A DNA stretch of 64,000 bases from Bacteroidaceae bacterium (lineage in GTDB: Bacteria; Bacteroidota; Bacteroidia; Bacteroidales; Bacteroidaceae), in the NCBI GenBank assembly GCA_017631315.1, contig JAGBTN010000018.1:95941-159940 (forward strand), read 5' to 3'. The notes beneath the pieces were generated by a model. The model was not told the DNA's origin. It searched no databases and saw only the letters and a program-made list of their open reading frames with translations. A program made the position numbers and the translations under genes. This document shows, piece after piece, positions 9,567 to 44,709 of this stretch. Position 1 is the first letter of the stretch. The number at the start of each line of letters is the position of its first letter.

Positions 9567-9654
9567 ATAATGCTTAACCATTATGCCCGGAAAGGTTAAC
9601 CATTTCCCAAAGAATGCTTAACCATTATTTTCAGCGATGTTAACGTGTTGGAAA
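9567..9654. repeat. four-unit 22-bp phased array with (G/C)TTAAC(C) cores (family locus b)
   Basis: The cores CTTAAC, GTTAAC, CTTAAC and GTTAAC start at 9573, 9595, 9617 and 9639, exactly 22 bp apart. Confidence 0.7.
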
Positions 9655-21232: not shown

Positions 21233-21330
21233 CAAAGATTTTACGAATAATGATGCGAAAACAAGAAAAAAGCAGAGAAAAACACATCTTTGTATAATAA
21301 AAAGACACGCGCATACGTTAATAAAAAGAC

Positions 21331-24300
21331 ATGAGCGTGCGAAAAATCATATTAGCCCTTACTCTACTTTTGGGCATCATCATAGTCTCATCCCCACTTC
21401 CGATTTTGGGAAGTGCTCTTAGGGGGGAGGCCTATGTTGCAGATACTGTACCCGAAGGCAAGCCACGCTTTACTGTTCGCAAGACTGGAACACAGGATAC
21501 AAAATCCTTGCGTAAGAAGAGTGCCGACCTGAGAGATCCGGACAACTTGAAAACCGAGGTTATCTACGACGAAAAGGATGACACCTATACCATCGGAACA
21601 TCTCTCGTTGGTTCGGAAGAGTCTGGCAGTGGCAGTAGAGGCCAAGGCGGCAGAAGTGGCAGTTCCAGCAGAAACACAAGTACTCGCAATTCAAGCACAA
21701 CATCAACGCAGGCATCATCAACAGGCGCAGCCGGAGCCTCTTCAGGCAGTATCCTTCCAGGCAGAGCAGGCTTCACACTCGGTACAGCAACAAGTTTCCT
21801 CAATGCCCCATTGCTGATGACACCGGAAGAGTACCAGCATTGGTCGCTGCAAAACAGTTTGCAGCAATATTGGCGTCAAAAGAACGAAGAAGCCTTTGAG
21901 GCAGAAGGAAAAAAGAAGTTTGACTTCACAGATATGCACTTTGACCTTGGACCAGCCGAGAAAATCTTTGGTCCTGGCGGTGTGCAGATTAAGACTCAAG
22001 GCAGTGCAGAACTCAAAGTAGGCGTCAACTCAAAGAACGTGAAGAATCCAGCACTTGCTTCTTCGCGCCGTAAGACCGTAGGTTTTGATTTCGAGGAGAA
22101 AATCAATCTTAGCCTTAATGGCAAGGTGGGCGATAAAATCAACCTGAACCTAAATTACAACACACAAGCCACTTTTGACTACGATGCTCAAAACCTTAAA
22201 CTCAAATACGACGGAAAGGAAGACGAAATAGTTAAGCTTATAGAAGCAGGTAACGTCTCTTTCCCCAGCAATATCAGTCTTGTTCCCGGTGTCAGCAGCC
22301 TTTTTGGCCTTCGAACAGATGTGCAATTTGGTAAACTTAAGATACAATCGGTCGTAAGCCAGAAGAAGAGTGCGACAAACAGCGTCGACAGTAAAGGTGG
22401 TTCGCAGACAACGAATTTTGAGTTCAGCGCTACAAACTATGAAGAGAATCGTCACTTCTTCCTCTCTCATTTCTTCCGCGAGAGGTTCGACAAAAGCATG
22501 GAGTCGTTACCTACTATCTCAAGTGGCATTAATATAAAGCGCGTAGAAATATGGGTAACCAATAAAAGTGGAAAGAGCGAGAACAACCGAAATATCATTG
22601 CATTGGCTGACCTTGGTGAACCGACATACATTTACAATAGTATGTGGACAGGTACAGGAACCAATGTCCCGAGCAACCGTTCGAATAGTGAGTATGATAT
22701 TCTGGTAAATAACTATGCCGATGCGCGCGATATTTCTCAAGCAACGACTATTTTAGATGGTATAGGCGACTTCCAGGGAAGCATAGATTATGAAAAGTTA
22801 CAGGCTGCTCGAAAACTGTCCAGCAGCGAATATACGGTCAACAATGCTTTAGGCTATGTCAGCCTTTCCAGCACATTGCAGGTAGATGACGTCCTTGCGG
22901 TAGCCTACGAGTACACTTATATGGGCACGACTTACCAGGTAGGTGAGTTTGCAAGTGATATTACAGATAATTCAAAAGCACTCTTTGTCAAGCTTCTGAA
23001 GGGTACAACGGGAAGCCCAACTCTCCCAACATGGCGCTTGATGATGAAGAACGTTTATTATCTCGGTACACAAAAAGTACAGAGCGATAAGTTCCGTCTT
23101 GACATCAAGTACCAGAGTGATTCGACAGGTGTTTATCTAAGTTATTTGCCAGAAGAGAAGTTCAAGAACACCATTCTTCTTAGGGCTCTTAATCTTGACA
23201 GACTGGATGCGAAGAACAATCCGCACCCTAACGGACAATTTGACTTTGTGGAGGGATATACTATCAATAAAGGTCGAGTTATCTTTCCCGTAGCAGAGCC
23301 TTTTGGCGAACATCTTGCAAAATGGATTGGCGATCCGGTTTTGGCAGAAAAGTATTGTTTCCCTGAACTCTATGATAGTACCAAGACAGTCGCCAAGCAG
23401 ATAACAGAGCACGACAAGTTCATTTTGACAGGCCGCTTCAAGGGCAATAATGCCGGCGAGATAGACCTTGGTGTAACCAATGTTGCCAGAGGTTCTGTTG
23501 TCGTCACAGCTGGCGGAACAACACTTACAGAGAATGTCGACTATACGGTCGACTACAATATGGGTCGTGTTACCATCATCAATCAAAGTCTCATTGATGC
23601 CGGAACCAACATAAGTGCTTCTGTAGAGAGTAACGACACCTACGGAATGCAGCGAAAGACAATGCTGGGTTTGAATCTGGATTACGAAATTAATAAGAAC
23701 TTCACGATAGGTGGTACCTTGATGTACCTTAGCGAGCAGCCGCTCACTACAAAGGTAAGCATGGGTAACGAGCCTTTGAAAAATACTTTATGGGGTTTCC
23801 ATGTCAGCTGGAAGAAAGAAAGCCAATGGCTAACCAATATCATCGACAAATTGCCTCTCATACAGTGTACCCAACCCAGCTTTATTGCTTTCAATGGTGA
23901 GTTTGCACAGTTAATAGCAGGTCAAAACCATAGTGTACAAGGCGATGCATCTTATTTGGATGACTTCGAAAGCAGTAGTATTAAGAGTACCCTGACGCAA
24001 CCGACGTATTGGAGTATGGCCAGCACTCCGAGTATGTTTGCAGAAAGCAAATTGTCTGGCGATGCTGCATATGGTTACAAACGTTCGCTTTTGGCATGGT
24101 ATTATGTTGACCCCATCTTTACCCGTCGAAGCAGCACACTCACTCCTGGCCATATTAAGAGTGACCTCGACCAGTTGTCCAGTCATTATGTTCGTGAGGT
24201 TTATGAGCGTGAGTTGTATCCGCAGAAATCTCAAAACAATTACAGTACAGCCACAGGCCTCAGTGTCCTGAACCTTGCTTTCTATCCTAAGGAAAGAGGT

Positions 24301-27300
24301 GCATACAATCTTACTACAGATGTCGATCAAAATGGCCATCTCAATCGACCGCGAGAAACTTGGGGTGGCATGATGCGTAAACTTGACAATACGGACTTTG
24401 AAGCACAGAACATCGAGTACATCGAGTTCTGGATGATGGACCCGTTCATCTATAAGCGCAATTTGCCAGGTAACCATGGTGGTGATCTCTATTTTAACCT
24501 CGGCGAGGTATCGGAAGATATTCTTAAAGACGGTAAGAAGTATTTCGAAAGTGGTATGCCTGTAGATGGTAATCCGCAATATTATGTGGATGGATATTGG
24601 GGTCGTATTCCTAACAGCAGCAGCGTGACCTATGCATTTAATAATGAAGCAGGTGCGCGTGCTCGTCAGGATGTCGGTATCAATGGCCTTAATGATGAAG
24701 AAGAACGCGAATTCAGCCTTTATGCAAATTACTTGCAGCAGATACAGAGCAAGGTTTCTCAGGCTGTTTATGATAGTATTTTGGCAGACCCTGCCAATGA
24801 CAACTATCACTATTATCGTGGCACAGACTACGATAATCTGCAAAGATCTATTCTTGATCGTTACAAGCGTATCAATATGCCTCAAGGCAATAGTGCCGAT
24901 TCCGATACGAGTCCGGAAAGTTATGAGACAGCATGGAAGTCAACTCCTGATGTCGAAGATATCAACCAGGACTATACTCTTAACGAATACGAGAAGTATT
25001 ACCAATACAGAGTAAGTATTCGTCCGGAGGATATGGTTGTCGGGCGTAACCATATTGCTGACAAGCGCGTGGCAAGTGTTAAATTGCGAAATGGTAATAC
25101 CGAGGAGTGTACTTGGTATCTTTTCCGTATTCCTTTGCGTGGATACGAAAGCAAGGAAGGAAACATCCGCGACTTTACGAGCATCCGTTTCATGCGTATT
25201 TTTATGACCGGTTTCGAGGAAGAAACAATTTTGCGTCTTGCTACACTTGATCTTGTTCAGGGTGATTGGCGTACTTATCAGCAGCCTCTTTACACTGGCA
25301 ATAATGTTTCCAGCGGTGGCGGAGTTCTAGAAGTAAGTACGGTCAGCATCGAAGAAAACAACGATAAGCAACCGGTCAACTATGTACTCCCTCCAGGCAT
25401 TACTCGTATCACAGACCCGTCGCAGTCGCAGTTGGTAGAATCTAACGAACAGGCCATGTGTATGGTGGCTCGTAATCTTGGCGACAGTGAGGCAAAGGCT
25501 GTATATAAGAACTGTAATTACGATATGCGCCAGTACAAGCATTTGCAAATGTACGTCCATGCAAATGCTTTGGCTGAAAACATTACTGCGACAGCCGATG
25601 GCGAATGTAGCATCTTTATTCGTCTTGGTTCAGACTATAAGAGCAATTATTATGAATACGAAGTACCTTTGAAACTCACGCCGGAAGGGAATTACGACAC
25701 ATACAGTGCTCAAGGCTGTCTGGCTGTCTGGCCATCTGAAAACATGGTGGATATCGATTTCGATATGTTCACATCGCTCAAAAAGCAACGCAACGCACAG
25801 GCAAGTGTAGGAGTTGCTGCCATGAATCGCCTCTTCTCTACTTACGACGAGAATCATCCCAACAATCGTGTCTCCATTATGGGTAATCCTACGTTGGGCG
25901 AGGTGAAGACTATCATGGTTGGTGTGCGTAACAATACCAGCAAGACAAAGAGCATAGAGGTTTGGGTCAACGAACTCCGACTTCAGGAATTCAGCAATAG
26001 TGGCGGTTGGGCAGCGCAAGGCAATTTGCAGGTTCAACTCAGCGATCTTGGTTCTGTCAATGCTTCTGCCAAGATGATCACTTCGGGCTTTGGCGGCATT
26101 GAGCAGAGTGTTGCTCAGCGCAAGAACGAGGACAATCTCAATTACTCTATTACCACGAGTTTCGACTTGGGACGTATCTTGCCAGAGAAGGCAAAACTCA
26201 CTGTGCCTATGTACTATAGTTACAGCAAGGAGAAGGTTTCACCCAAATACAATCCTTTCGATACAGACATGCATTTGGACGATGCACTCGATGCGCTTGC
26301 CAATGAGGAACAACGTGACTCACTGCGTAGTTTGACCAATCACGTAGAGACCAACAAGAATCTTTCTTTCAGTGGTGTCAGACTTAATATCAGCACCCGA
26401 AAGCATCCCATGCCTTACGACCCGGCAAACTTCACATTCGGTTATAGCCGTTCAACTCAACTTACCGAGGGGCAGACAACAGTTTACGAACGAGAACTGA
26501 ACTGGAAGGCAAACGTCAATTATTCGTGGAGTCCCAACTGGAAACCATGGGAACCTTTTAAGAACTTGAAGGGTAAGAGTAAATGGTTGGATATTCTCAA
26601 GGCACAAAACTTGTCCTATGCGCCGCAGAATATCACATTCTCTACCGATATGAGTCGCAACTATTATGAGTTGCAGGAACGTGACCTCGAAAATCCGGGC
26701 GATTTCTCTGCTTTGCCTGCCACCTTCAGCCAGAACTGGACATGGAATCGCAACTTCTCTCTCAAGTGGGATGTATTCAAGTCGTTGCATTTCTCTTTCC
26801 AGAGCGGAACGAGGGCAGAGGTAGAGGAACCATATACGCAGATAAACAAGGATTTGTATCCCGACCGTTACGAAGCATGGAAAGATTCCGTGAAGTGGAG
26901 TCTTCGCAATTTCGGTCGTCCGCTCGATTATAGTCAGAATACACAGATAAGTTACAAGGTACCTTTAGAAAAGATACCTATCTTCGATTGGGTGTCCACC
27001 GATGTCTCCTACAATTCTACCTACTCTTGGAAGCGAGGAGCCGAACGTGCAGGTCGCCCGTCGCTTGGCAATACTATTAACACCCAGCGTACTGTCAATG
27101 TGAATGGCAAGTTCGATTTAGAGAAACTGTACAACCACAGTCCGTTCCTCAAGGAGGCAAACAAACGCTTCTCTGCCTCAAACGCAAAAGCCGGTGCAAA
27201 CCAGAAGCGTATGGAGAAGGAAAAGGAAGACAAGGCTAAAAAGGAGGCTAAGGAGAAAGAAAAGGAAGCCCGGAAGAAGGCGGAACAGGAGGCTATGGAG

Positions 27301-29154
27301 ACAGGCATTCCTCTGGACAGCATATTGGCCAAGAACGAGAAGACACCTTCCAAACAGGGTAATGCTTCGGGCGTCAGCACAAAGAAGAAGGCTGAGAACA
27401 AAGGCTTTGTTCAAGAAATAGTTCTCTATCCGGACTCCGACCTTGTTGTCTCCCACGGACAGAAGTCCAAGCGTGTTCGTGTCACTGCACGAGATAGCAG
27501 CGGCTTTGCCTATAACATAAAGTTCAAGAAGGTCGACGAGAACAGTATTCGCATTGTCAAGACACCGGTCGACACCACAAAGGTACGCTTGAATGTTGTG
27601 GCTTTGCCCAAGGCATCGGAGCAGAAGTGGTATGGTGTGGCACAGGCAGCAGCACGTTTCTTGATGATGTTGCGCAGTGTCAGTGTAAGTTATCGCAACA
27701 CATACAACCTTACTGTCCCTGGCTTCCTGCCGGAGGTAGGCGATATGCTTGGACAGAGGAAGTTAGATGGCATCTTCTCGCCAGGCGTTGCTTTTGCTTT
27801 CGGTTTTGTTGACGACTCTTATCTCGACGATGCCAAGTCGAAGGGCTGGCTCTTGGGCAATGACAGTGTTGCAACGCCTGCCACCATTGCCGGCACAGAG
27901 GATGTGCAGGTGAAGATGACGTTGGAGCCTTTCACAGACCTGAAGATCGACCTCAATATGAGTCGCACCGACAATCGCAACAAGAGCATTCAGTATATGT
28001 ATGGTGCACCGCCAACGCATAGCGGTTCGTTCAACATGACAACCATCAGCATTGGCTCTGCTTTTGCCAGTGGCGGTTCTGCAAGCAACGGATACTTCAG
28101 TAAGACATTCCAGACGTTCCAAAACAATCTGGACAGGTATCAGCAGCGCATCGAGGCCCGTTATCAAGGCATACGTTATCCTGCAGGAACAGGCATGAAC
28201 GGTGTGTTCAATCCCGAGAATGGTACGGTCAACAAGTACAGTGCCGACGTTATGATTCCTGCTTTCCTCGATGCCTATACGGGCAGCAGTTCGCTCGACA
28301 TCTTCCCGTCGCTGCTCAAGATGTTGCCCAACTGGACGGTCAACTACAAGGGACTCAGCAACCTGCCTTGGGTGAGAGATCATTTCAAGAGTGTCAACCT
28401 CACTCATTCCTATAAGAGCATCTATGCCGTGGGTGCCTATCAGTCCTACAGCTCGTGGGTAGAGTGCATGGGCAGTGGCGGATTAGGTTTCATACAGAAT
28501 ACCACAACGGGCTCTTACACACCCAACAGCCTCTTCGACGTAAGCACAGTCAGCATCAACGAGAACTTCTCGCCGCTTTTGGGTATCAATGCTACGCTCA
28601 ACAACAACATGACCTTCAAGGCAGAGTATAGAACCACACGTGTCTTGAATCTGAGCATGACGAGTGCGCAACTGACGGAGACAGGCTCCAAGGACTTCGT
28701 CTTCGGTTGGGGTTACAAGATAAACGACTTCAACATTAGCAGTCTCTTCAGGTCCAAGAAGGCAAGTGAACAGGTTGCTGGCAGGACAAGAACCACCAAG
28801 GGCAAGGGAGCAGGTGCCAACCAAAAAGACGCAGCAGCAAACCAAAGTACAACACAGAGCCGTACAAGCAGAAGTAACAAACAGAAGATTGCCCACGACT
28901 TGAATCTGCGCTTCGACTTCAGCATACGCAACCAGAGTGCCATCAAGCGCGACTTGCAGACCAACCTCTGCGAGGCAACGAGCGGCAATATGGCCATCAA
29001 GACAAGTGCACAGATAGACTACACCCTGAGCCGTATGGTTACGCTGAGCCTCTTCTACGACCGCCAGCGTTCAGAACCGCTCCTTTCCAGCAGCAGTTAT
29101 CCCACCATCACCCAAGACTTCGGCATGACCATGAAGTTCTCGCTGACAAGGTAG
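21331..29154 (+). CDS. sprA: T9SS translocon / gliding-motility cell surface protein SprA
   Basis: 2607 aa, a size matched only by SprA in this phylum. It has a signal peptide and a Ser/Thr/Gly-rich N-terminal linker, and is beta-rich throughout. The divergent ruvA-sprA arrangement is conserved in Bacteroidota, by my recollection. Confidence 0.85.
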
Positions 29155-29200: not shown

Positions 29201-30835
29201 ATGAAAACAAAAAACGTCTGGATGTTTTTGTTGCTTTTGGCAACTTGCCTTGTTGGCAGTAGTGTCTTCTGTAGTTGTTCGGAGGACGATGTAGAAGAAA
29301 CTCCCCCTGCTACGGTTACGCCTCCTGGTGGCAATGCAACAGAGGAGAAGGACACTCACGAATATGTTGACCTCGGTTTACCTTCGGGCACCTTGTGGGC
29401 AACTTGTAATGTCGGTGCATCAAGGCCTGAGTTCCAAGGATATCTTTTTGCTTGGGGTGAGATAGAACCTAAAACAACGTATAATTGGAGTACATACAAG
29501 TACTGTGATGGCTCATATAAAACAATGACGAAGTACTGCACAAGTAGTTATTACGGAATAGTTGACGGAAAGATAGAACTTGAATCGTCAGACGATGCAG
29601 CCACAGCAAATTGGGGTAGCAACTGGCAGATACCATGCTACGAACAATTCAAAGAACTATTAGATGGCTTTAATACAACCACTTCATGGACGACCTTAAA
29701 TGGTGTCAAAGGCCGAAGGATAACAAGCAGAAGCAACGGTCATAGTATTTTTTTGCCTGCTGCGGGTTACCGCGAGAACACGAGTCTCAACGATGCAGGT
29801 AGCGAAGGTAACTACTGGTCGCGTTCAGTCAGTACGATTGAAAACTACGCTTATGGCTTGGACTTATATTCTAACGGTATCGGTACGGTCAGCGGCAGTC
29901 GTTACTACGGCAAGAGCGTCCGTCCCGTACGTGTTAAAAAAAACAAGGAAAGTGTAGTTATGGTAACTAACATAGAACTTTTAAAAGATAAACCATATTT
30001 ATATCTTAAGGATTTTACGTATTTAACTTCGATAGTTTTGCCTTGGTATGCTACAAACAAGAATGTAAAGTGGTACAGCAGCAACAATAGAATTGCAACA
30101 GTTAACCAAGCGGGTAAGGTGGCTGCAGTTGCTGTCGGCACATGCACGATTACCTGTTCTGCAACAGACGGTAGTGGTGTATGGGCGCAATGTGAAGTGA
30201 CGGTTCGTGATGATAGTTCTGGGACATTGGATGGTCATGATTATGTTGACCTTGGCCTGCCTTCGGGCATATTGTGGGCGACTTGCAATGTGGGTGCATC
30301 AAAGCCCGAAGAATATGGTGATTACTTTGCATGGGGCGAGACAGAACCTAAAACGACATACAACTGGAGCACCTACAAATACTGCAAAGGCACTTATGAT
30401 ACAATGACGAAGTACTGCACAAGTAGTCATTACGGAATAGTTGATGGAAAGAGAAAACTTGAACCATCAGACGATGCTGCCATAGCAAATTGGGGGGCAG
30501 ATTGGCATATGCCGAGTGATGGCCAATTCTATGAACTCGTCGATAGAGAATATACTATTTCAACCTGGATAACAATGAATGGCGTTTATGGCAGGAAGAT
30601 AACCAGTAAGAGCAACGGCAACAGTATCTTCTTGCCGGCTGCTGGTTATCGCGGCGGTACGAGTCTCCATGATGTAGGTAGCGATGGTAATTATGTATCG
30701 AATTCTTTAAATCCGTGGGGCTGCATTTACGCTTCCTGTCTGTCCTTCGATTCTAGCACTGTTAGGGCGAACTATGATGTCTACAGTACTCGTTGCGTTG
30801 GCTGGAGCGTTCGCCCCGTCCGTGTGAAGAAGTAA
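29201..30835 (+). CDS. lipoprotein with two duplicated FISUMP/DUF1566-like modules flanking a Big_2 (Ig-like) domain
   Basis: 544 aa with a lipobox LVGSSVFCSC. The module YVDLGLPSG.LWATCNVGAS.PE...FAWGE.EPKTTYNWSTYKYC...FLPAAGYR occurs twice (about aa 52-245 and 345-544). The Big_2-like segment is VTNIELL...NKNVKWYSSNNRIATVNQAGKVAAVAVGTCTITC. Confidence 0.7.
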   Translation: MKTKNVWMFLLLLATCLVGSSVFCSCSEDDVEETPPATVTPPGGNATEEKDTHEYVDLGLPSGTLWATCNVGASRPEFQGYLFAWGEIEPKTTYNWSTYKYCDGSYKTMTKYCTSSYYGIVDGKIELESSDDAATANWGSNWQIPCYEQFKELLDGFNTTTSWTTLNGVKGRRITSRSNGHSIFLPAAGYRENTSLNDAGSEGNYWSRSVSTIENYAYGLDLYSNGIGTVSGSRYYGKSVRPVRVKKNKESVVMVTNIELLKDKPYLYLKDFTYLTSIVLPWYATNKNVKWYSSNNRIATVNQAGKVAAVAVGTCTITCSATDGSGVWAQCEVTVRDDSSGTLDGHDYVDLGLPSGILWATCNVGASKPEEYGDYFAWGETEPKTTYNWSTYKYCKGTYDTMTKYCTSSHYGIVDGKRKLEPSDDAAIANWGADWHMPSDGQFYELVDREYTISTWITMNGVYGRKITSKSNGNSIFLPAAGYRGGTSLHDVGSDGNYVSNSLNPWGCIYASCLSFDSSTVRANYDVYSTRCVGWSVRPVRVKK

Positions 30836-30875
30836 CTCCATAGTAAAAGAGAACAAGTGTCCTGCAGTCCATTTA

Positions 30876-30897
30876 CCGGAAGGACGCGTCCTTCCGG
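30876..30897 (+). terminator. perfect 22-nt palindrome downstream of the lipoprotein gene
   Basis: CCGGAAGGACGCGTCCTTCCGG gives a 10-bp stem. No strong T-run follows. Confidence 0.45.
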
Positions 30898-30909
30898 CAA
30901 ACTATACGT

Positions 30910-30997
30910 GTGAAGTTTACCAACTTCTCTGCAGAACTTGCCCGACTTCACGTGTGAAGTTTGTCAACTTCACTGCAGAAGTTTTTCGACATCTCTA
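30910..30997. repeat. 22-bp phased array; 44-bp unit duplicated, each copy containing a GTGAAGTT-N4-AACTTC(AC) palindrome (family locus e)
   Basis: The units are GTGAAGTTTACCAACTTCTCTG, CAGAACTTGCCCGACTTCACGT, GTGAAGTTTGTCAACTTCACTG and CAGAAGTTTTTCGACATCTCTA. Confidence 0.65.
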
Positions 30998-31125
30998 TGG
31001 TGCTGAAAAACAGGGCCTCTTTCTGCGGTATGATGTGATGATTCTCGTGGCAGGACAGCAATCGTTCAAACGGTGGCAATTTTGCGCTTATACATTATAT
31101 ATTATATAGTGAGCAGGAGACCCCG

Positions 31126-31175
31126 AAAAAACAAATCAGTCGCCTCTTCTGGTGGGGCGACTGATTGTTTTTCTG
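31126..31175. terminator. bidirectional hairpin terminator downstream of tRNA-Pro
   Basis: ATCAGTCGCC (31135-31144) pairs with GGCGACTGAT (31156-31165). An A-run lies on the left and a T-run on the right. Confidence 0.6.
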
Positions 31176-31192
31176 AAAGGAGCAAAAAAAAG

Positions 31193-31265
31193 TCGGGGTG
31201 ACCCGACTCGAACGGGCGACCACCTGGTCCCAAACCAGGTGCGCTACCAACTGCGCTACACCCCG
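31193..31265 (-). tRNA. tRNA-Pro (anticodon TGG)
   Basis: I folded the cloverleaf by hand. The acceptor is CGGGGTG/CACCCCG, the D-arm GCGC-AGTTGGTA-GCGC, the anticodon arm CCTGG-TTTGGGA-CCAGG and the T-arm GCCCG-TTCGAGT-CGGGT. It is 73 nt and CCA is not encoded. Confidence 0.9.
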
Positions 31266-31275
31266 ATTGCTTTTT

Positions 31276-31349
31276 CATTGACCATTGACCATTGACCATT
31301 GACCATTGACCATTGACCATTGACCATTGACCATTGACCATTGACCATT
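31276..31349. repeat. perfect tandem heptamer array (CATTGAC)x10 plus a partial unit
   Basis: Ten identical units span 31276-31345, followed by CATT. The array lies between the tRNA-Pro 5' end and its only visible promoter box. Confidence 0.95.
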
Positions 31350-31435
31350 CTTGGTTTAGCACCAAGTCGCGCTTTTAATGCGCGGAGGACCATTGTCTAT
31401 GGAGACTTAAGGCCCAATGTCTTGCGAAAAGCGGT

Positions 31436-31443
31436 GCAAAGGT
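31436..31443 (-). promoter_or_regulatory. -7 promoter box (TACCTTTG on minus strand), candidate tRNA-Pro promoter
   Basis: Plus strand CAAAGGTA, about 170 nt upstream of the tRNA 5' end. I saw no closer TAnnTTTG. Confidence 0.45.
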
Positions 31444-31537
31444 ACGACTTTTTATTTAAAACACAAAGCAGAGATGCCAAAAAAGTTGCAGTGAACATAT
31501 TTTTTTATGTTTTTTCACTCAGGTCTTAATTTCTTCG

Positions 31538-31545
31538 TACTTTTG
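31538..31545 (+). promoter_or_regulatory. -7 promoter box TACTTTTG for the serC operon
   Basis: Matches TAnnTTTG, 63 nt upstream of the serC ATG. Confidence 0.6.
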
Positions 31546-31607
31546 CGTTTTCCTATGTTAAGAAAACGACAAAAACACTTTAGTAGAAAGAATAAACACT
31601 TAGGATA

Positions 31608-32675
31608 ATGAAAAAGTATAACTTTAATGCAGGCCCCTCCATCCTCCCTCGCGAGGTGATAGAGGCAACGTCTGCTGCTTGCTTGGACTTCGAGGGCAGC
31701 GGACTTTCTCTCATGGAAACAAGTCATCGTGCAAAGAACTTCCAGCCGATTGTCGACGAAGCAGTTGCTCTGTTCAAGGAACTGCTCAGCATACCCGAAG
31801 GCTACAGCGTTGTCTTCCTCGGCGGTGGTGCAAGTCTGGAGTTTTGCATGGTGCCCTACAACTTCCTCGAGAAGAAGGCAGCCTACCTCAATACCGGCGT
31901 CTGGGCAAGCAAGGCACAGAAGGAAGCAAAACTCTTCGGCGAAGTGGTGGAAGTGGCTTCCAGCGCCGACAAGAACTTTACATACATCCCCAAGAACTTC
32001 ACCATCCCAACGGATGCCGATTACTTACACATCACAAGCAACAACACCATCTACGGTACAGAACTCCTCAAAGACATAGACAGCCCCATTCCGGTGATTG
32101 CCGACATGAGTAGTGATATCTTCTCCCGTCCCATAGACGTTAGCAAATACGGCATGATTTATGGCGGTGCCCAGAAGAACCTGAGCATGGCAGGCGTCAC
32201 CTTCTGCATCATCAAGGAAGACTTGTTGGGCAAGGTGAGCCGTCCTATCCCCACAATGCTCGACTATCGTACACACGTCAAGAAGGGCAGCATGTTCAAC
32301 ACACCTCCCACAGTGCCCATCTATTGCGCATTGCAGAACCTGAAGTGGATTAAAAAGCAGGGCGGCGTCGAGGCAATGGAGAAGTTGGCCATCCAGCGTT
32401 CAGCAATTCTATACGAGGAGATTGACCGCAACAAACTCTTTGTCGGCACAGCCGAAGCAGACAGCCGCTCACGCATGAACATCACCTTCGTACTGAAGCC
32501 CGAGTATCAGGAACTGCAAGACGAGTTTATGGCATTTGCCACCAGTAAGGGCATGGTAGGCGTGAAGGGACATCGCGACGTAGGCGGCTTCCGTGCAAGT
32601 TGCTACAACGCTATGACCATAGAAGGTTGCGAGGCTCTCGTGGCTTGCATGAAGGAGTTTGAAAAGAGTCATTGA
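31608..32675 (+). CDS. serC: phosphoserine aminotransferase
   Basis: 355 aa. [24 protein letters not shown] and [14 protein letters not shown] (PLP lysine region) are canonical SerC. Confidence 0.95.
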
Positions 32676-32711
32676 CCATTCATCATTTACCATTGAGCAT
32701 TGACCATTAAT
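32670..32711. repeat. degenerate heptamer array (CATTGAC-like, 6 units); left inverted repeat of cassette 1
   Basis: The units are CATTGAC, CATTCAT, CATTTAC, CATTGAG, CATTGAC and CATTAAT. The serC stop codon TGA lies inside the first unit. Confidence 0.75.
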
Positions 32712-32725
32712 TCCAATGAGCAGAA

Positions 32726-33085
32726 ATGCGAAACGACAATCAGATACTTTTTGACAGTAAGGCCTTCGCTCTTCGGATAATAAGGCTATACAATTATCTC
32801 AAGCAAGAGAAACAGGTGTATGTCTTGTCAAAGCAGTTGTTGAGAAGCGGCACAAGCATAGGGGCTAATGTCCGAGAGAGTGTCAATGCTCAAAGTAGAA
32901 TGGATTTTATAAACAAATTAAACATTGCCCTAAAGGAGGCAAACGAAAGTGAATATTGGTTGGAACTGCTTCACGAATCAAATTATTTGGACGACCAACA
33001 GTTTGAGTCCATCTATAATGATTGTGGCAAGATAGCGGCGACTTTGACAAAAATCATAAGGACAACCAAAGCGACTGCAAACTAA
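32726..33085 (+). CDS. four-helix-bundle protein, 23S rRNA intervening-sequence protein / Avd-like family (PF05635)
   Basis: 119 aa. QLLRSGTSIGANVRES, DFINKLNIALKEANESEYWLELL are family hallmarks. Confidence 0.85.
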   Translation: MRNDNQILFDSKAFALRIIRLYNYLKQEKQVYVLSKQLLRSGTSIGANVRESVNAQSRMDFINKLNIALKEANESEYWLELLHESNYLDDQQFESIYNDCGKIAATLTKIIRTTKATAN

Positions 33086-33086
33086 T

Positions 33087-33118
33087 AATGGTCAACGGTC
33101 AATGTTCAATGTTCAATA
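33087..33118. repeat. heptamer array in reverse-complement orientation (GTCAATG-like, 4-5 units); right inverted repeat of cassette 1
   Basis: AATGGTCAACGGTCAATGTTCAATGTTCAATA. Segment 33087-33111 is reverse complementary to 32684-32708 at 21 of 25 positions. Confidence 0.75.
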
Positions 33119-33124
33119 GACAAA

Positions 33125-34042
33125 ATGAAAATACTTGTAGCAACAGAAAAGCCATTCAGCAAGGTTGCTGTAGATGGCATTAAGGCAGTGACAGATGCTG
33201 CCGGATATGAACTTATTCTCCTCGAGAAATATACAGAAAAGAGCCAGTTGCTCGATGCCGTAAAGGATGTCGATGCCATGATTATCCGCTCGGATAAAGT
33301 GGATGCAGAAGTCCTGGATGCAGCCAAGCAACTGAAGATTGTTGTACGTGCCGGTGCTGGTTACGACAACATCGACCTTGCTGCAGCCACAGCACACAAC
33401 GTGGTTGCCATGAACACACCCGGACAGAATGCCAACAGCGTGGCAGAACTGGTGTTCGGTTTGCTCGTCTTCGGCGTTCGCAACATGTTCAACGGTACAA
33501 GCGGCACAGAACTGATGGGCAAGCGGCTTGGCATCTTGGCCTTTGGCAACGTCGGTCGTAATGTAGCCCGCATTGCAAAAGGCTTTGGCATGGAGATTGC
33601 TGCTTACGATGCTTTCTGTCCTGCAGAAGCCATCGAGGCTGCCGGCGTGACGGCTGTAAAGAATCAGGACGAACTCTTCGAGACTTGCGACATCGTGTCG
33701 CTCCACATTCCTGCAACCCCCGAAACAAAGCAGAGCATCAACTACGACCTCGTAGGCAAGATGAAGGAGGGTGGCATCCTTGTGAACACTGCACGTAAGG
33801 AAGTCATCGACGAAGAAGGTCTCATCAAACTGATGGAGGAGCGTAAAGACCTGAAGTACCTTACAGACATCAAGCCCGATGCAGATGCAGAGTTCGCAGA
33901 GAAGTTTGCCGGTCGTTACTTCGCCACACCGAAGAAGATGGGCGCACAGACAGCAGAAGCAAACGTCAATGCCGGCATTGCAGCAGCAAACCAGATTGTG
34001 GGCTTCCTTCGCGATGGAATAACTAAATTCAAAGTCAACTAA
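33125..34042 (+). CDS. serA: D-3-phosphoglycerate dehydrogenase (short form, 2-hydroxyacid dehydrogenase family)
   Basis: 305 aa with the NAD-binding motif GILAFGNVGRNVA. It sits in the serC operon context typical of Bacteroidales. Confidence 0.85.
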   Translation: MKILVATEKPFSKVAVDGIKAVTDAAGYELILLEKYTEKSQLLDAVKDVDAMIIRSDKVDAEVLDAAKQLKIVVRAGAGYDNIDLAAATAHNVVAMNTPGQNANSVAELVFGLLVFGVRNMFNGTSGTELMGKRLGILAFGNVGRNVARIAKGFGMEIAAYDAFCPAEAIEAAGVTAVKNQDELFETCDIVSLHIPATPETKQSINYDLVGKMKEGGILVNTARKEVIDEEGLIKLMEERKDLKYLTDIKPDADAEFAEKFAGRYFATPKKMGAQTAEANVNAGIAAANQIVGFLRDGITKFKVN

Positions 34043-34087
34043 TAAATTTAATAATTTAAGGATTTTATATTTAACGATTAGATACTA

Positions 34088-34486
34088 ATGACAGAGGCCG
34101 AGTTGAAGGATAGGCTGATGAACTTTGCAATCAGAATCATTAAAATGGTTGATTCTATGCCTCATTCTATATCTTCTGCGGCTATTGCCAAACAAGTTGT
34201 ACGTTCAGGCACTTCGCCGATTGCCAACTATCGGGCTGCATGTCTTGGAAAGTCTAAAAGAGATTTCTTGAATAAGTTAAAGATGGTAGAGGAGGAACTG
34301 GATGAAACAGGGATGTGGCTCGACATCATCATGGAAACAGAAATGCTCCCACGTAAACGCGTCAGCGCATTATATGCCGAAAGTCAAGAACTCCTGAAAA
34401 TAATTATCAGTTCAATACTCACCGTACAGACTTCATTAAAATCGGAAGGCAAAGAAACTCCATCTACCCAATCTTCAAACAGATAA
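34088..34486 (+). CDS. four-helix-bundle protein, 23S rRNA intervening-sequence protein / Avd-like family (PF05635)
   Basis: 132 aa. QVVRSGTSPIANYRAA, DFLNKLKMVEEELDETGMWLDII are family hallmarks. It is only distantly related to the copy at 32726. Confidence 0.85.
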   Translation: MTEAELKDRLMNFAIRIIKMVDSMPHSISSAAIAKQVVRSGTSPIANYRAACLGKSKRDFLNKLKMVEEELDETGMWLDIIMETEMLPRKRVSALYAESQELLKIIISSILTVQTSLKSEGKETPSTQSSNR

Positions 34487-34561
34487 TCTTCAATGAGGTT
34501 TATCAATGCCCAAACAAATCAATCCTAAAATATAAAATCTTTAAATCCTAAAATAATAAAG

Positions 34562-35845
34562 ATGGCAAAAATAAAGCCTTTTAAGGGTGTTCGTCCACCG
34601 AAGGATCTTGTCGAGCAAGTAGAGAGCCGTCCTTATGATGTCCTTGACTCTGAGGAGGCTCGTTCTGAGGCTGGCGACAATGAGAAGTCGCTCTATCACA
34701 TCATCAAGCCCGAGATTGACTTCCCTGTCGGCACAAGCGAGTACGACCCTCGTGTCTATGAAAAAGCCGTCGAGAACTTCAAGATGTTCCAGGAGAAGGG
34801 CTGGCTCAAACAGGATGCAGAGGAGATGTATTACATCTATGCGCAGACAATAGGAGAATCCCCCCTTGGGGGACTGCGGGGGGCTTCCGGCAAGACGCAA
34901 TATGGTCTTGTTGTGGCTGCTGCTGTAGAGGACTACATGAACGGCGTTATCAAGAAGCATGAACTAACACGTCGTGATAAAGAAGAGGACCGCATGAAGC
35001 ATGTTCGTGTGAACAATGCCAACCTCGAACCCGTATTCTTCGCTTATCCTGATAATGCCGTGCTCGATGCACTTGTTGCCCGAATAACATCAACGGTTCC
35101 GGAATATGATTTCATTGCTCCCGTCGATGGTTTCCGTCATCAGTTGTGGCTGGTCAAGGAGCCAGAAGACATCAGCACAATCACCGAGACTTTTGCCTCT
35201 ATACCTTATTTATATATAGCAGACGGACATCATCGCAGCGCAGCAGCAGCACTTGTTGGAGCAGAAAAGGCAAAGCAGAACCCCAATCATCGTGGCGACG
35301 AGGAATACAACTTCTTTATGGCGGTTTGTTTCCCCGCAAGCCAACTCACGATTTTAGACTATAATCGTGTCGTTAAGGACCTCAACGGCATGACCGACGA
35401 GCAGTTCCTTGATGCACTTTCCAAAAACTTTGAAGTCACGAAGAAAGGTTTAGAGCCTTATCGACCTGCTGAGTTGCATGAATTCAGTCTGTATCTTGGA
35501 GGAGTATGGTATAGCCTCAAACTCAAAGAAGGTCTTTGCGACGAGAACGATCCCATTGGCAGCCTCGACGTAAGCATCAGCAGTAAACTCATCTTGGACG
35601 AGTTGCTCGGCATCAAAGACTTGCGTAGTGACAAGCGCATCGACTTTGTAGGTGGACTTCGTGGCTTGGGTGAGTTGAAGCGTCGTGTGGATAATGGCGA
35701 GATGAAGATGGCCTTGGCGCTTTATCCTGTCAGCATGACGCAAATCATGAATATTGCAGACAGTGGCAACATCATGCCTCCTAAAGCAACATGGTTCGAA
35801 CCGAAACTCCGTTCGGGTCTTGTGATTCATAAATTGGATGATTGA
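34562..35845 (+). CDS. DUF1015 domain-containing protein
   Basis: 427 aa. MAKIKPFKGVRP...YDVLDSEEAR, IKKHELTRRDKEEDR and YIADGHHRSAAA are DUF1015 signatures. It carries a GC-rich in-frame insert at 34856-34888. Confidence 0.85.
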   Translation: MAKIKPFKGVRPPKDLVEQVESRPYDVLDSEEARSEAGDNEKSLYHIIKPEIDFPVGTSEYDPRVYEKAVENFKMFQEKGWLKQDAEEMYYIYAQTIGESPLGGLRGASGKTQYGLVVAAAVEDYMNGVIKKHELTRRDKEEDRMKHVRVNNANLEPVFFAYPDNAVLDALVARITSTVPEYDFIAPVDGFRHQLWLVKEPEDISTITETFASIPYLYIADGHHRSAAAALVGAEKAKQNPNHRGDEEYNFFMAVCFPASQLTILDYNRVVKDLNGMTDEQFLDALSKNFEVTKKGLEPYRPAELHEFSLYLGGVWYSLKLKEGLCDENDPIGSLDVSISSKLILDELLGIKDLRSDKRIDFVGGLRGLGELKRRVDNGEMKMALALYPVSMTQIMNIADSGNIMPPKATWFEPKLRSGLVIHKLDD

Positions 35846-36425
35846 TATATACAAAACCATAAAAGACAAAAGCGAGGGTACTTACACTGAACTCAGGAGT
35901 AAGTTCCTCGCTTTTGCGCATCCTATCAGCACTGTCGAGGAGGCAATGGCACTTGTAGAGCAGTACCAGAAGAAGTACTACGATGCACGTCATGTGTGCT
36001 GGGCTTACATGATTGGAGCAGACAGAGAAACGTTTCGCTCAAACGACAACGGCGAACCGAGTGGTACGGCAGGCAAACCCATTCTTGGTCAAATAAACTC
36101 GAACGAGTTGACCGACATCATTATCCTTGTGGTCCGCTACTTCGGAGGTGTCAAACTTGGCACCAGCGGACTCATCGTGGCTTATCGTACAGCAGCAGCC
36201 GAAGCCATCGCCGCAGCAACGATAGAGGAACGACAGGTTGAGGCGACGTACGACTTCTCATTTGAATACCCCTTGATGACTGCGGTAATGAAAGTAGTCA
36301 GAGATATGAATGCACGCATTCTGGAGCAGTCATACGATATGGATTGTCGTATGTCTGTCAGCATACGAAAAGGTTTGCTCGACGAGCTGAAGACGCGCAT
36401 CCAGAAAGCCATTTCACCTTTCTGA
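35838..36425 (+). CDS. yigZ: YigZ / IMPACT family protein
   Basis: 195 aa containing SKFLAFAHPISTVEEA...YYDARHVCWAY...DNGEPSGTAGKPIL. The start overlaps the DUF1015 stop (ATGATTGA). Confidence 0.85.
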   Translation: MIDIYKTIKDKSEGTYTELRSKFLAFAHPISTVEEAMALVEQYQKKYYDARHVCWAYMIGADRETFRSNDNGEPSGTAGKPILGQINSNELTDIIILVVRYFGGVKLGTSGLIVAYRTAAAEAIAAATIEERQVEATYDFSFEYPLMTAVMKVVRDMNARILEQSYDMDCRMSVSIRKGLLDELKTRIQKAISPF

Positions 36426-44672: not shown

Positions 44673-44700
44673 ATTGAACATTGAACATTGAACATTGAAC
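44673..44700. repeat. perfect tandem heptamer array (ATTGAAC)x4
   Basis: Units lie at 44673, 44680, 44687 and 44694, between the divergent sulP and POT promoter boxes. Confidence 0.9.
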
Positions 44701-44709
44701 AATTTTTTA

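Follow-up and report, generated by a model that had tools for sequence, protein, structure and literature searches.

Genes of the PF05635 family enclosed by inverted heptamer arrays in the serC-serA-DUF1015 operon of a Bacteroidaceae bacterium

In a stretch of 64,000 nucleotides from the genome of a Bacteroidaceae bacterium (GenBank assembly GCA_017631315.1, contig JAGBTN010000018.1, positions 95,941 to 159,940 of the forward strand; hereafter the window), we analysed two small genes of the PF05635 family that lie in the spacers of an operon carrying serC, serA and a DUF1015 gene, each enclosed by two inverted arrays of short tandem repeats. The arrays (arms) and the open reading frame (ORF) between them form one heritable cassette, which sits in intercistronic spacers in the sense orientation, is gained or lost between close relatives, occurs as the same type in different spacers of different species, decays to ORF-less hairpins that keep the arms and encodes a constrained protein. 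Each unit is probably a selfish cassette of the kind known from 23S rRNA as the intervening sequence (IVS), residing in an mRNA spacer and setting, by its stem, the upstream stop codon beside the downstream start codon. Cognate inverted heptamer arrays with a shared unit motif surround most of the sampled genes of the TIGR02436 type, an architecture that appears to be undescribed, and a literature search with subscription-only literature outside its scope returned no account of mRNA operons with PF05635 ORFs set between inverted heptamer arrays. These data suggest that most sampled PF05635 members are the cargo of a small cassette of fixed build that is able to sit in any operon.

Two cassettes in one operon and their proteins

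Cassette 1 occupies the gap between serC and serA (Table 1). A preliminary description made from the sequence had placed a 119-aa PF05635-type ORF in this gap, and the PF05635 (E=1.1e-28, 100 bits, cutoff 33.8) and TIGR02436 (112 bits, cutoff 24) profiles confirm the assignment of this gene, ORF1. The left CATTGAC array, said to hold the serC stop codon in its first unit, and the right array of four to five reverse-complement units were both recovered by Tandem Repeats Finder (x5.6 at 32670-32708 and x4.4 at 33087-33117), with the stop codon TGA at 32673-32675 lying inside the first left-arm heptamer, 32670-32676. Between the end of the left arm and the start of ORF1 there are 16 nt, while the right arm has its first base directly after the ORF1 stop codon and its last base 1 nt ahead of the serA ATG. 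The complementarity of 32684-32708 and 33087-33111 that had been counted by hand holds on direct reading (21 of 25 positions), and the top inverted repeat of the region pairs 32672-32709 with 33086-33123 over 38 nt at 79% complementarity. Local alignment of the 100-nt flanks scored 36 against 15.0±2.7 for dinucleotide shuffles (z=7.9), a score reached by 0 of the 300 shuffles, and when the ORF1 region was folded, the closing stem was kept in both the minimum free energy (MFE) structure and the centroid. The stem that had been proposed to hold the ORF in its loop, in the manner of a 23S rRNA IVS, is thus real and specific.

A second cassette, whose arms differ in sequence from those of cassette 1, fills the gap between serA and the DUF1015 gene. 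Its gene, ORF2, matches PF05635 with E=1.8e-14 and 54.3 bits and TIGR02436 with 80 bits; the inverted repeat (34046-34079 against 34521-34554, 34 nt) is 82% complementary with z=6.0, and its closing stem is also present in the MFE and centroid folds. Both stems lie flush with their neighbour genes: relative to the stop codon of the preceding gene, the left arm begins at -4 nt in cassette 1 and at +3 nt in cassette 2, and between the right arm and the ATG of the next gene there are 1 and 7 nt, respectively. The two cassette proteins are distant; in alignment A1, made of 14 diverse family members, each shares 34% identity with the Nostoc reference, and no further PF05635 ORF was found in the window. 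Every element that the preliminary description had listed for the serC-serA gap stood, whereas it had overlooked the second cassette, the stand-alone arrays of the cassette 1 heptamer and the wide occurrence of the architecture. It had also noted a single visible promoter box at 31538, which is indeed the only TAnnTTTG on the plus strand between 31538 and 38309 and is presumed to be the promoter of a serC-ORF1-serA-ORF2-DUF1015 unit.

Two solo arrays in the window, at 31276 and 44673, show that the cassette 1 heptamer also exists without a gene in this genome. The first of them reads GTCAATG directly upstream of tRNA-Pro, which lies on the minus strand at 31192-31265.

Table 1. Operon genes, cassette parts and related arrays, with positions counted from the first nucleotide of the window
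Feature	Position	Strand	Description
Solo array	31276..31349	+	(CATTGAC)x10.6; same heptamer as the cassette 1 arms
Promoter box	31538..31545	+	TACTTTTG; Bacteroidetes-type -7 box
serC	31608..32675	+	class-V aminotransferase, 355 aa
Cassette 1 left arm	32670..32709	+	degenerate (CATTGAC)x5.6; begins on the serC stop codon
Cassette 1 ORF (ORF1)	32726..33085	+	119 aa, PF05635/TIGR02436 four-helix-bundle protein
Cassette 1 right arm	33086..33123	+	(GTCAATG/GTTCAAT)x4.4; reverse complement of the left arm
serA	33125..34042	+	D-3-phosphoglycerate dehydrogenase family, 305 aa
Cassette 2 left arm	34046..34079	+	AT-rich array, units of ~8 nt (ATTTAAGGATTTTATATTTAAC); begins 3 nt past the serA stop
Cassette 2 ORF (ORF2)	34088..34486	+	132 aa, PF05635/TIGR02436 protein
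Cassette 2 right arm	34521..34560	+	pairs with 34046-34079; ends 1-7 nt before the DUF1015 ATG
DUF1015 gene	34562..35845	+	427 aa, downstream cistron
Solo array	44673..44701	+	(CATTGAA)x4; same heptamer family; divergent intergenic region

The AlphaFold2 model of ORF1 (pLDDT 88) is a four-helix bundle, the fold of Avd (4DWL; 8UB7 for the ribonucleoprotein), the accessory protein of diversity-generating retroelements (DGRs). Foldseek matched the model to BT_0352 of Bacteroides thetaiotaomicron (2RLD; TM 0.85-0.93, 59% identity, sequence match E=5e-37), to XCC0516 (2GSC; TM ~0.84) and to Avd 4DWL (TM 0.78 by query length and 0.86 by target length, identity ~12%), and the predicted fold also matches the Avd chains of the DGR ribonucleoprotein. 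The 2RLD and 2GSC entries hold five chains each, like the published Avd pentamer, and 4DWL was matched on chains A, B, D and E. Residues invariant across phyla are K-Q-x-x-R-S-G-T-S-x-x-A, together with S, K, E, E and W in helices 3-4. In the arabinose operon of Bacteroides, a cassette between araD and araA (locus L210, 2435-2925, and also L211-L213) encodes a protein with 98% identity to BT_0352, and the arms of this cassette, (AATTGAC)x4.5 and (GTCAATT)x4.5, are 31 nt long and 97% complementary. BT0350 and BT0351 are members of the arabinan-activated PUL7 (PMC8121099). With a crystal structure of the protein at hand, the araD-BT_0352-araA cassette offers a tractable test case.

Filled, empty and decayed gaps among relatives

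A scan based on serA gave 80 loci from rumen and gut Prevotellaceae species. Alignment of the gaps in relatives, set beforehand as a test of the preliminary description, revealed presence/absence polymorphism. The closest relative (L001), with proteins 98-99% identical to those of the window (serA 98%) and a proportion of synonymous differences (pS) of 0.13-0.145, carries neither cassette, and its serA-DUF1015 gap is a single T, resembling loci that were seemingly never occupied; empty gaps measure 0-30 nt, and in some of them the two genes overlap at a TAATG junction. Both cassettes are present in L008, and cassette 1 is found with CATTGAC/GTCAATG arms of varying copy number in L010, L012, L066, L069 and L070, its ORF being frameshifted in L012. 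The types also exchange places. In L024 a complete type-1 cassette, its left array expanded, fills the serA-DUF1015 gap. L046 shows the reverse of the arrangement in the window: its serC-serA gap holds a deleted type-2 cassette, and the cassette between serA and DUF1015 is of type 1 and has an internal deletion. A deleted type-2 cassette is also carried by L040 and L041, and the deleted cassettes of all three loci retain both arms. Heptamer copy number varies among the orthologous cassettes in L008, L010, L066, L069, L070 and L024. The suggestion that the inverted repeats are the ends of a small cassette is borne out by the empty sites, by the type found in another gap and by the ORF-less derivatives with arms.

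PF05635 ORFs were counted in 8/79 serC-serA and 3/68 serA-DUF1015 gaps, ORF-less inverted arrays of 7- or 8-mers in 5/79 and 5/68, solo 7/8-mer arrays in 8/79 and 1/68 and a GC-rich hairpin element in 6/79 and 1/68; 15/79 and 37/68 gaps, respectively, were shorter than 21 nt. In L035, L036 and L042 the serC-serA gap holds another PF05635 ORF (47% identical), with weak flank complementarity in L035 (z=3.8) and L036 (z=-0.8). Homologues of ORF1 at 87-88% identity, including that of the cultured Xylanibacter ruminicola 23 (CP002006, locus L091), lie in the serC-serA gap every time, and homologues of ORF2 at 87% identity in the serA-DUF1015 gap; those of ORF2 at 69-74% identity were found between the methylmalonyl-CoA epimerase and carboxyltransferase genes (mce-mmdA) with CGATTTT/GAAAATC arms. 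Over 13 Prevotellaceae cassettes, the median distance is 0 nt between the upstream stop codon and the left arm, and 8 nt between the right arm and the downstream start codon.

The cassette proteins are under purifying selection. Between the window and L008 the proportions of nonsynonymous (pN) and synonymous differences were 0.039 and 0.449 for ORF1 and 0.048-0.061 and 0.41-0.42 for ORF2, next to 0.040 and 0.512 for serC and 0.043 and 0.620 for serA, and the ratio of nonsynonymous to synonymous divergence (dN/dS) of both cassette proteins is ~0.06-0.09. Thus ORF1 and ORF2 are constrained like the housekeeping genes beside them and equally diverged, a pattern that would fit either cassettes resident for a long time and cleanly lost on several occasions, or recombination that exchanges the entire spacer. 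Recent horizontal transfer was rejected for the pairs window-L008 and window-L010, since cassette pS equals that of serC and serA. Recent transposition was rejected as well, since identical or nearly identical ORF1, ORF2 and BT_0352 proteins share one context each, and the copies of Nostoc flagelliforme with 99.8-100% identity proved to be a duplicated operon.

Two local origins or uses of the heptamers were also discarded. All serC orthologues end in His-stop, so that the arrays might have been seeded from the 'CAT TGA' terminus of serC; relatives that sit in unrelated contexts (L126, L200, L150 and L210) have this heptamer type in their flanks too, which makes such an origin unneeded. Reading the heptamers as stop or start signals in three frames fails on the unit AATTCGG, which contains none of the TGA, TAA or ATG present in many other units.

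The same gaps hold several further small elements. Short heptamer or octamer arrays stand alone in the serC-serA gaps of L002, L004, L016, L033, L044, L060 and L062, and ORF-less hairpins of inverted arrays occur in L051, L059, L061, L063 and L067; their units (e.g. TTCATAA, CAGTTGA, CATTGAA and CATTAAA) mostly fit AAT[T/G]NNN in the orientation of a left arm. The GC-rich hairpin element (GACCCCCTCC..GCTCCCCCT..AGGGGGAG), frequently paired in inverted orientation over 130-170 nt, was seen in these gaps of related species (L001 3942-4000; L013 3847-4000 and 4916-5048; L024 3832-4000; L040/L041 3845-4000; L053 3871-4000) and looks like a repetitive extragenic palindromic (REP)-like intergenic repeat family of rumen Prevotellaceae. 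The serC-serA spacer takes other small genes too: in L007 (3753-4000) and L014 (1253-1500) it contains an unrelated 70-aa ORF (L007 3770-3982, MGTKIISCGSIIEAQALNN...), bracketed by the 9-nt inverted repeat AATCTGTTT/AAACAGATT.

Inverted heptamer arrays around family members of other phyla

A tblastn search against plasmids yielded 35 records from Cyanobacteriota, Bacteroidota, Spirochaetota, Bacillota and Chloroflexota. In 9/11 annotated plasmid loci the PF05635 gene lies in sense between two genes of the same strand, the neighbours including hsdS-hsdR, csx2-cas1, an RND adaptor-permease pair, helicase-methylase and DUF1156-HEPN protein, and 8/11 have strongly complementary flanks made of locus-specific heptamers (GATTAGT, GGAGGTC, CCAGTGA, AATCCCC/AATCGTA, TTTTAGA, AAGGATG, units of the AATTAGG/AGTTAGT type in Monoglobus, and TAATTCG, the last 35/35). 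Alignment A1 pulled 88 further loci from metagenomes and viral contigs, the larger sample being picked by the pattern KQ[LVI][LV]RSGT and ranked on similarity to the Nostoc member.

Across 107 non-identical PF05635 ORFs the median z of flank complementarity was 9.8, compared with -0.2 for 627 control ORFs. Values of z>=4 were reached by 87/107 (81%, a figure which, given the pattern and the ranking used for sampling, holds for the TIGR02436-like subfamily and not for all Avd relatives) against 15/627 controls (2.4%), and z>=6 by 76/107 against 8/627. MFE structures with >=15 flank-flank base pairs were obtained for 91/107 PF05635 ORFs and for 20/97 random segments, and at 60% identity 18/24 clusters had a median z>=4. 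The complementarity belongs to the individual locus: cognate arm pairs scored a median of 39.5 and non-cognate pairs 15, with 58/82 of the former above the 95th percentile of the latter. The median arm is 32 nt long (quartiles 29-37, i.e. 4.1-5.3 units) and the stem has a period of 7 or 14 in 76/87 cases. Once the units are rotated to a common register, a shared motif emerges, AAT[T/G]RRN, which carries 3.83 bits against 2.23±0.08 in column-permuted controls; its polarity (51:17) is only moderately supported because the AATT core is self-complementary. Furthermore, the more alike two proteins are, the more alike are their units and arms (Spearman 0.26 among pairs under 70% identity; Mantel 0/500), and where both neighbours are co-directional, the ORF is in sense orientation in 35 loci and antisense in 5, according to crude gene calls.

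On the plasmids of Nostoc and Dolichospermum (NZ_CP024793.1, NZ_CP051207.1), the TAATTCG array that flanks the Nostoc flagelliforme cassette is present at 10-38 places per plasmid.

Likeness to known systems and competing explanations

The 23S rRNA IVSs of Coxiella burnetii, Leptospira and Haemophilus resemble the cassettes in having a PF05635 ORF within long-stem inverted repeats and in being sporadic among relatives, as the cassettes are among related Prevotellaceae species. In Coxiella the IVS has an S23p ORF and a 28-bp terminal stem, with 2-3 tandem GACAGAT heptamers upstream of the ORF, their number differing between strains, and the stem is cleaved by RNase III at the first of these heptamers (PMC4990558). 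Cassette 1 has the same build, with terminal inverted repeats forming a long stem around the ORF and tandem heptamers of variable copy number in the arm, the period being 7 on both of its arms. The rRNA element is extruded from its host RNA as a stem-loop, to which we liken the stem-loop inferred for the cassette; RNase III cleavage, shown for rRNA IVSs, is proposed for the cassette by analogy. The two differ in location, as IVSs sit in helix 9, 25 or 45 of 23S rRNA whereas cassette 1 lies in an mRNA spacer between the protein-coding genes serC and serA, outside any rRNA gene; a search of 30500-36000 against Rfam gave tRNA-Pro as the only match above the gathering score, with an overlapping Trp_leader below threshold.

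For the selfish cassette that we favour, the following course can be proposed. A promoterless PF05635 (S23/Avd-like) gene is enclosed by two inverted arrays of ~4-5 tandem heptamers each, which would pair in the polycistronic RNA to a stem of ~35 bp. The base of this stem would set the upstream stop and the downstream start ~0-10 nt apart, the spacing of an empty site, and the 450-nt insertion would be extruded as a stem-loop, as an IVS is from its 23S rRNA helix, so that it would do the operon little harm. The stem is a probable substrate of RNase III if the rRNA IVSs are a guide, and cleavage would release the ORF RNA and part the flanking cistrons. In this way an insertion of 450 nt could fit even between tightly coupled genes, the stem restoring stop-start proximity and RNase III perhaps excising it. 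The protein, a homologue of the Avd pentamer that binds RNA stems, probably binds the heptamer arrays, possibly with one unit per protomer. New spacers might be reached by gene conversion into existing heptamer hairpins or arrays, or by homologous recombination via conserved flanking genes. For a function at the RNA level, the argument would come only from analogy and from the positional and orientation evidence.

Orphan intergenic heptamer repeats are said to have been puzzling since 1990, when Mazel et al. reportedly described the heptamers of cyanobacterial short tandemly repeated repetitive sequences (STRRs). The TAACTGA repeats of Beggiatoaceae, Cyanobacteria and Bacteroidetes are abundant intergenic heptamers just upstream of start codons, described by MacGregor; their copy number shifts in 7-nt steps, they were reported as direct repeats without an enclosed gene or a link to PF05635, and their function and spread were called unknown (PMC4679880). 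Rotated, the reverse complement of TAACTGA is AGTTATC, which fits the unit motif of the cassettes and thereby gives these repeats the orientation of a right arm, and such orphan repeats resemble the solo arrays of the window. Tentatively, and with more doubt than for the two cassettes of the window, PF05635 proteins and inverted heptamer arrays may together be one selfish cassette class widespread across phyla, living as extruded stem-loops in any abundant transcript, be it in rRNA helices or mRNA spacers. The pentamer would recognise its own AAT[T/G]RRN heptamers with about five units per arm, orphan heptamer repeats would be decayed remains or landing pads, and many of the associations with CRISPR-cas, restriction-modification and DGRs would be hitch-hiking. 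PF05635 is a large family of unknown function whose members have been read as ribosomal, as DGR accessory or, when inside cas operons, as cas-associated (PMC3936711), and it gains a testable model here. If true, the model of cassette cargo would correct annotations made by guilt of association and link three literatures, those on 23S rRNA intervening sequences, on intergenic heptamer repeats and on Avd-like proteins.

Several results weigh against the IVS-type selfish cassette. The cassette ORF is under strong purifying selection, whereas the S23p ORF of Coxiella is probably untranslated and decaying, in an element the origin of which its authors call unknown (PMC4990558); a protein constrained like housekeeping genes must do something that the rRNA-IVS model leaves unexplained. 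Arm mismatches comprise 39 G:U, 63 A:C and 226 others, so there is no G:U excess. Nothing in these counts points to the sense RNA, and complementarity seems to be kept up in the DNA itself, for instance by slippage and conversion between the arms. In some distant loci (e.g. L114 and L119) the arms lie 100-200 nt from the neighbouring genes, and juxtaposition of stop and start is therefore not universal, while ~19% of the sampled relatives have no detectable arms. Signs of mobility were likewise missing. No target-site duplication was visible at the junctions of filled and empty gaps, where the repetitive arms could hide a short one. Neither an ORF of reverse transcriptase (RT) size with a YxDD motif was found within ~12 kb of the cassettes nor, by Pfam, a transposase or RT among 10 neighbouring ORFs (8 belong to known other families and 2 to no family), and near-identical cassettes at unrelated sites were found neither in the 64 kb of this genome nor in the sampled relatives.

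A rival reading, which we consider unlikely, is an element that moves as DNA. Its arrays would be terminal inverted repeats (TIRs), recognised either by the four-helix-bundle protein or by some transposase or recombinase whose gene lies elsewhere, with the RNA stem as a by-product. Miniature inverted-repeat transposable elements (MITEs), to which the ORF-less hairpins would then be akin, do share with the cassettes terminal inverted repeats, ORF-less derivatives with both ends and insertion polymorphism among relatives, and the empty and filled sites in close relatives, the occurrence of one type in two gaps and the deletion derivatives with both arms speak for it. So do the co-divergence of the arms with the ORF, the lack of any wobble signal for selection on RNA, the solo arrays of the cassette 1 heptamer elsewhere in the window and the 10-38 places per Nostoc/Dolichospermum plasmid taken by arrays of one heptamer. 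However, the target-site duplication, cognate transposase and burst of near-identical copies of a MITE were not seen for the cassettes, no transposase or RT lies within ~12 kb, and the synonymous divergence of the cassettes equals that of their flanks, which implies long residence. Moreover, cassette ends are tandem arrays of variable length, unlike MITE ends and atypical of TIRs, and the sense bias of 35 to 5, together with arms flush with stop and start codons, points to a constraint from the transcript.

That the stem-loop and an RNA-binding protein tune the stability or translation of the flanking cistrons for the benefit of the host, the protein being a domesticated regulator, is quite improbable. 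In its favour, the protein is constrained like serC and serA and has co-diverged with them, orthologous serC-serA cassettes persist across many rumen Prevotella, Xylanibacter ruminicola 23 among them, and the stem stands exactly at the cistron boundary. A host function is hard to reconcile with a closest relative that lacks both cassettes, with the absence of both from most of the ~80 related species, with homologous cassettes in unrelated operons (restriction-modification, CRISPR-cas, efflux, arabinose and methylmalonyl-CoA) and with copies that are pseudogenised or deleted (L012, L046).

A precedent for hairpins with such effects is given by REPs and the bacterial interspersed mosaic elements (BIMEs) built of them, which in enterobacterial operons set the relative stability and translation of flanking cistrons. 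In the REPtrons of proteobacteria, a gene for a REP-associated tyrosine transposase (RAYT) is flanked by inverted copies of REP, a short repeat dispersed between genes. REPtron and cassette are alike in this enclosure of one gene by inverted copies of a dispersed repeat and in the hairpins at cistron boundaries, and the TAATTCG arrays far outnumber the PF05635 genes on the Nostoc and Dolichospermum plasmids as REPs outnumber RAYT genes. They differ in the repeat, a palindrome of 20-40 nt in REP and a tandem heptamer array in the cassette, and in the gene, which in REPtrons encodes a Y1/HUH transposase and in cassettes a small four-helix bundle; no Y1/HUH (IS200/IS605-like) transposase domain was found in the enclosed gene, which matched only PF05635, TIGR02436 and related hypothetical-protein subfamilies.

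Least credible of all is an orphan or trans-acting DGR accessory gene, whose Avd-like protein would serve an RT encoded elsewhere with the arms belonging to a retro-mobile RNA. The predicted fold does match that of Avd, in 4DWL as well as in the DGR ribonucleoprotein, and DGR RNAs also pair sequences up- and downstream of the template, with Avd binding a stem-loop of that RNA (bioRxiv 10.1101/2023.10.23.563531), but identity to Avd is ~12%, DGRs have not been described as having inverted heptamer arms, and the RT, the pair of template and variable repeats (TR/VR) and the target gene of a DGR are all missing at the cassettes. A DGR in the window itself was rejected likewise, in line with the preliminary description, which had held that this is not a canonical DGR Avd: RT and transposase (within ~12 kb) and a TR/VR pair were all absent. 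Between 20000 and 46000 a single direct repeat reaches 45 nt or more (29356-29655/30235-30534, 300 nt, 78% identical); it lies inside a 544-aa ORF with a Big_2 domain (29201-30835), and 41/66 of its mismatches fall on third codon positions and are not adenine-specific, as expected of an ordinary intragenic domain duplication and not of a TR/VR pair. A defence system was also discarded, with no PADLOC match. The Big_2 protein is preceded by a very long plus-strand ORF (21325-29151, 2609 aa), and imperfect 22-nt tandem repeats of ~3 copies each occupy two intergenic regions, one at 9569-9628 and one at 30912-30984, between the 544-aa ORF and tRNA-Pro.

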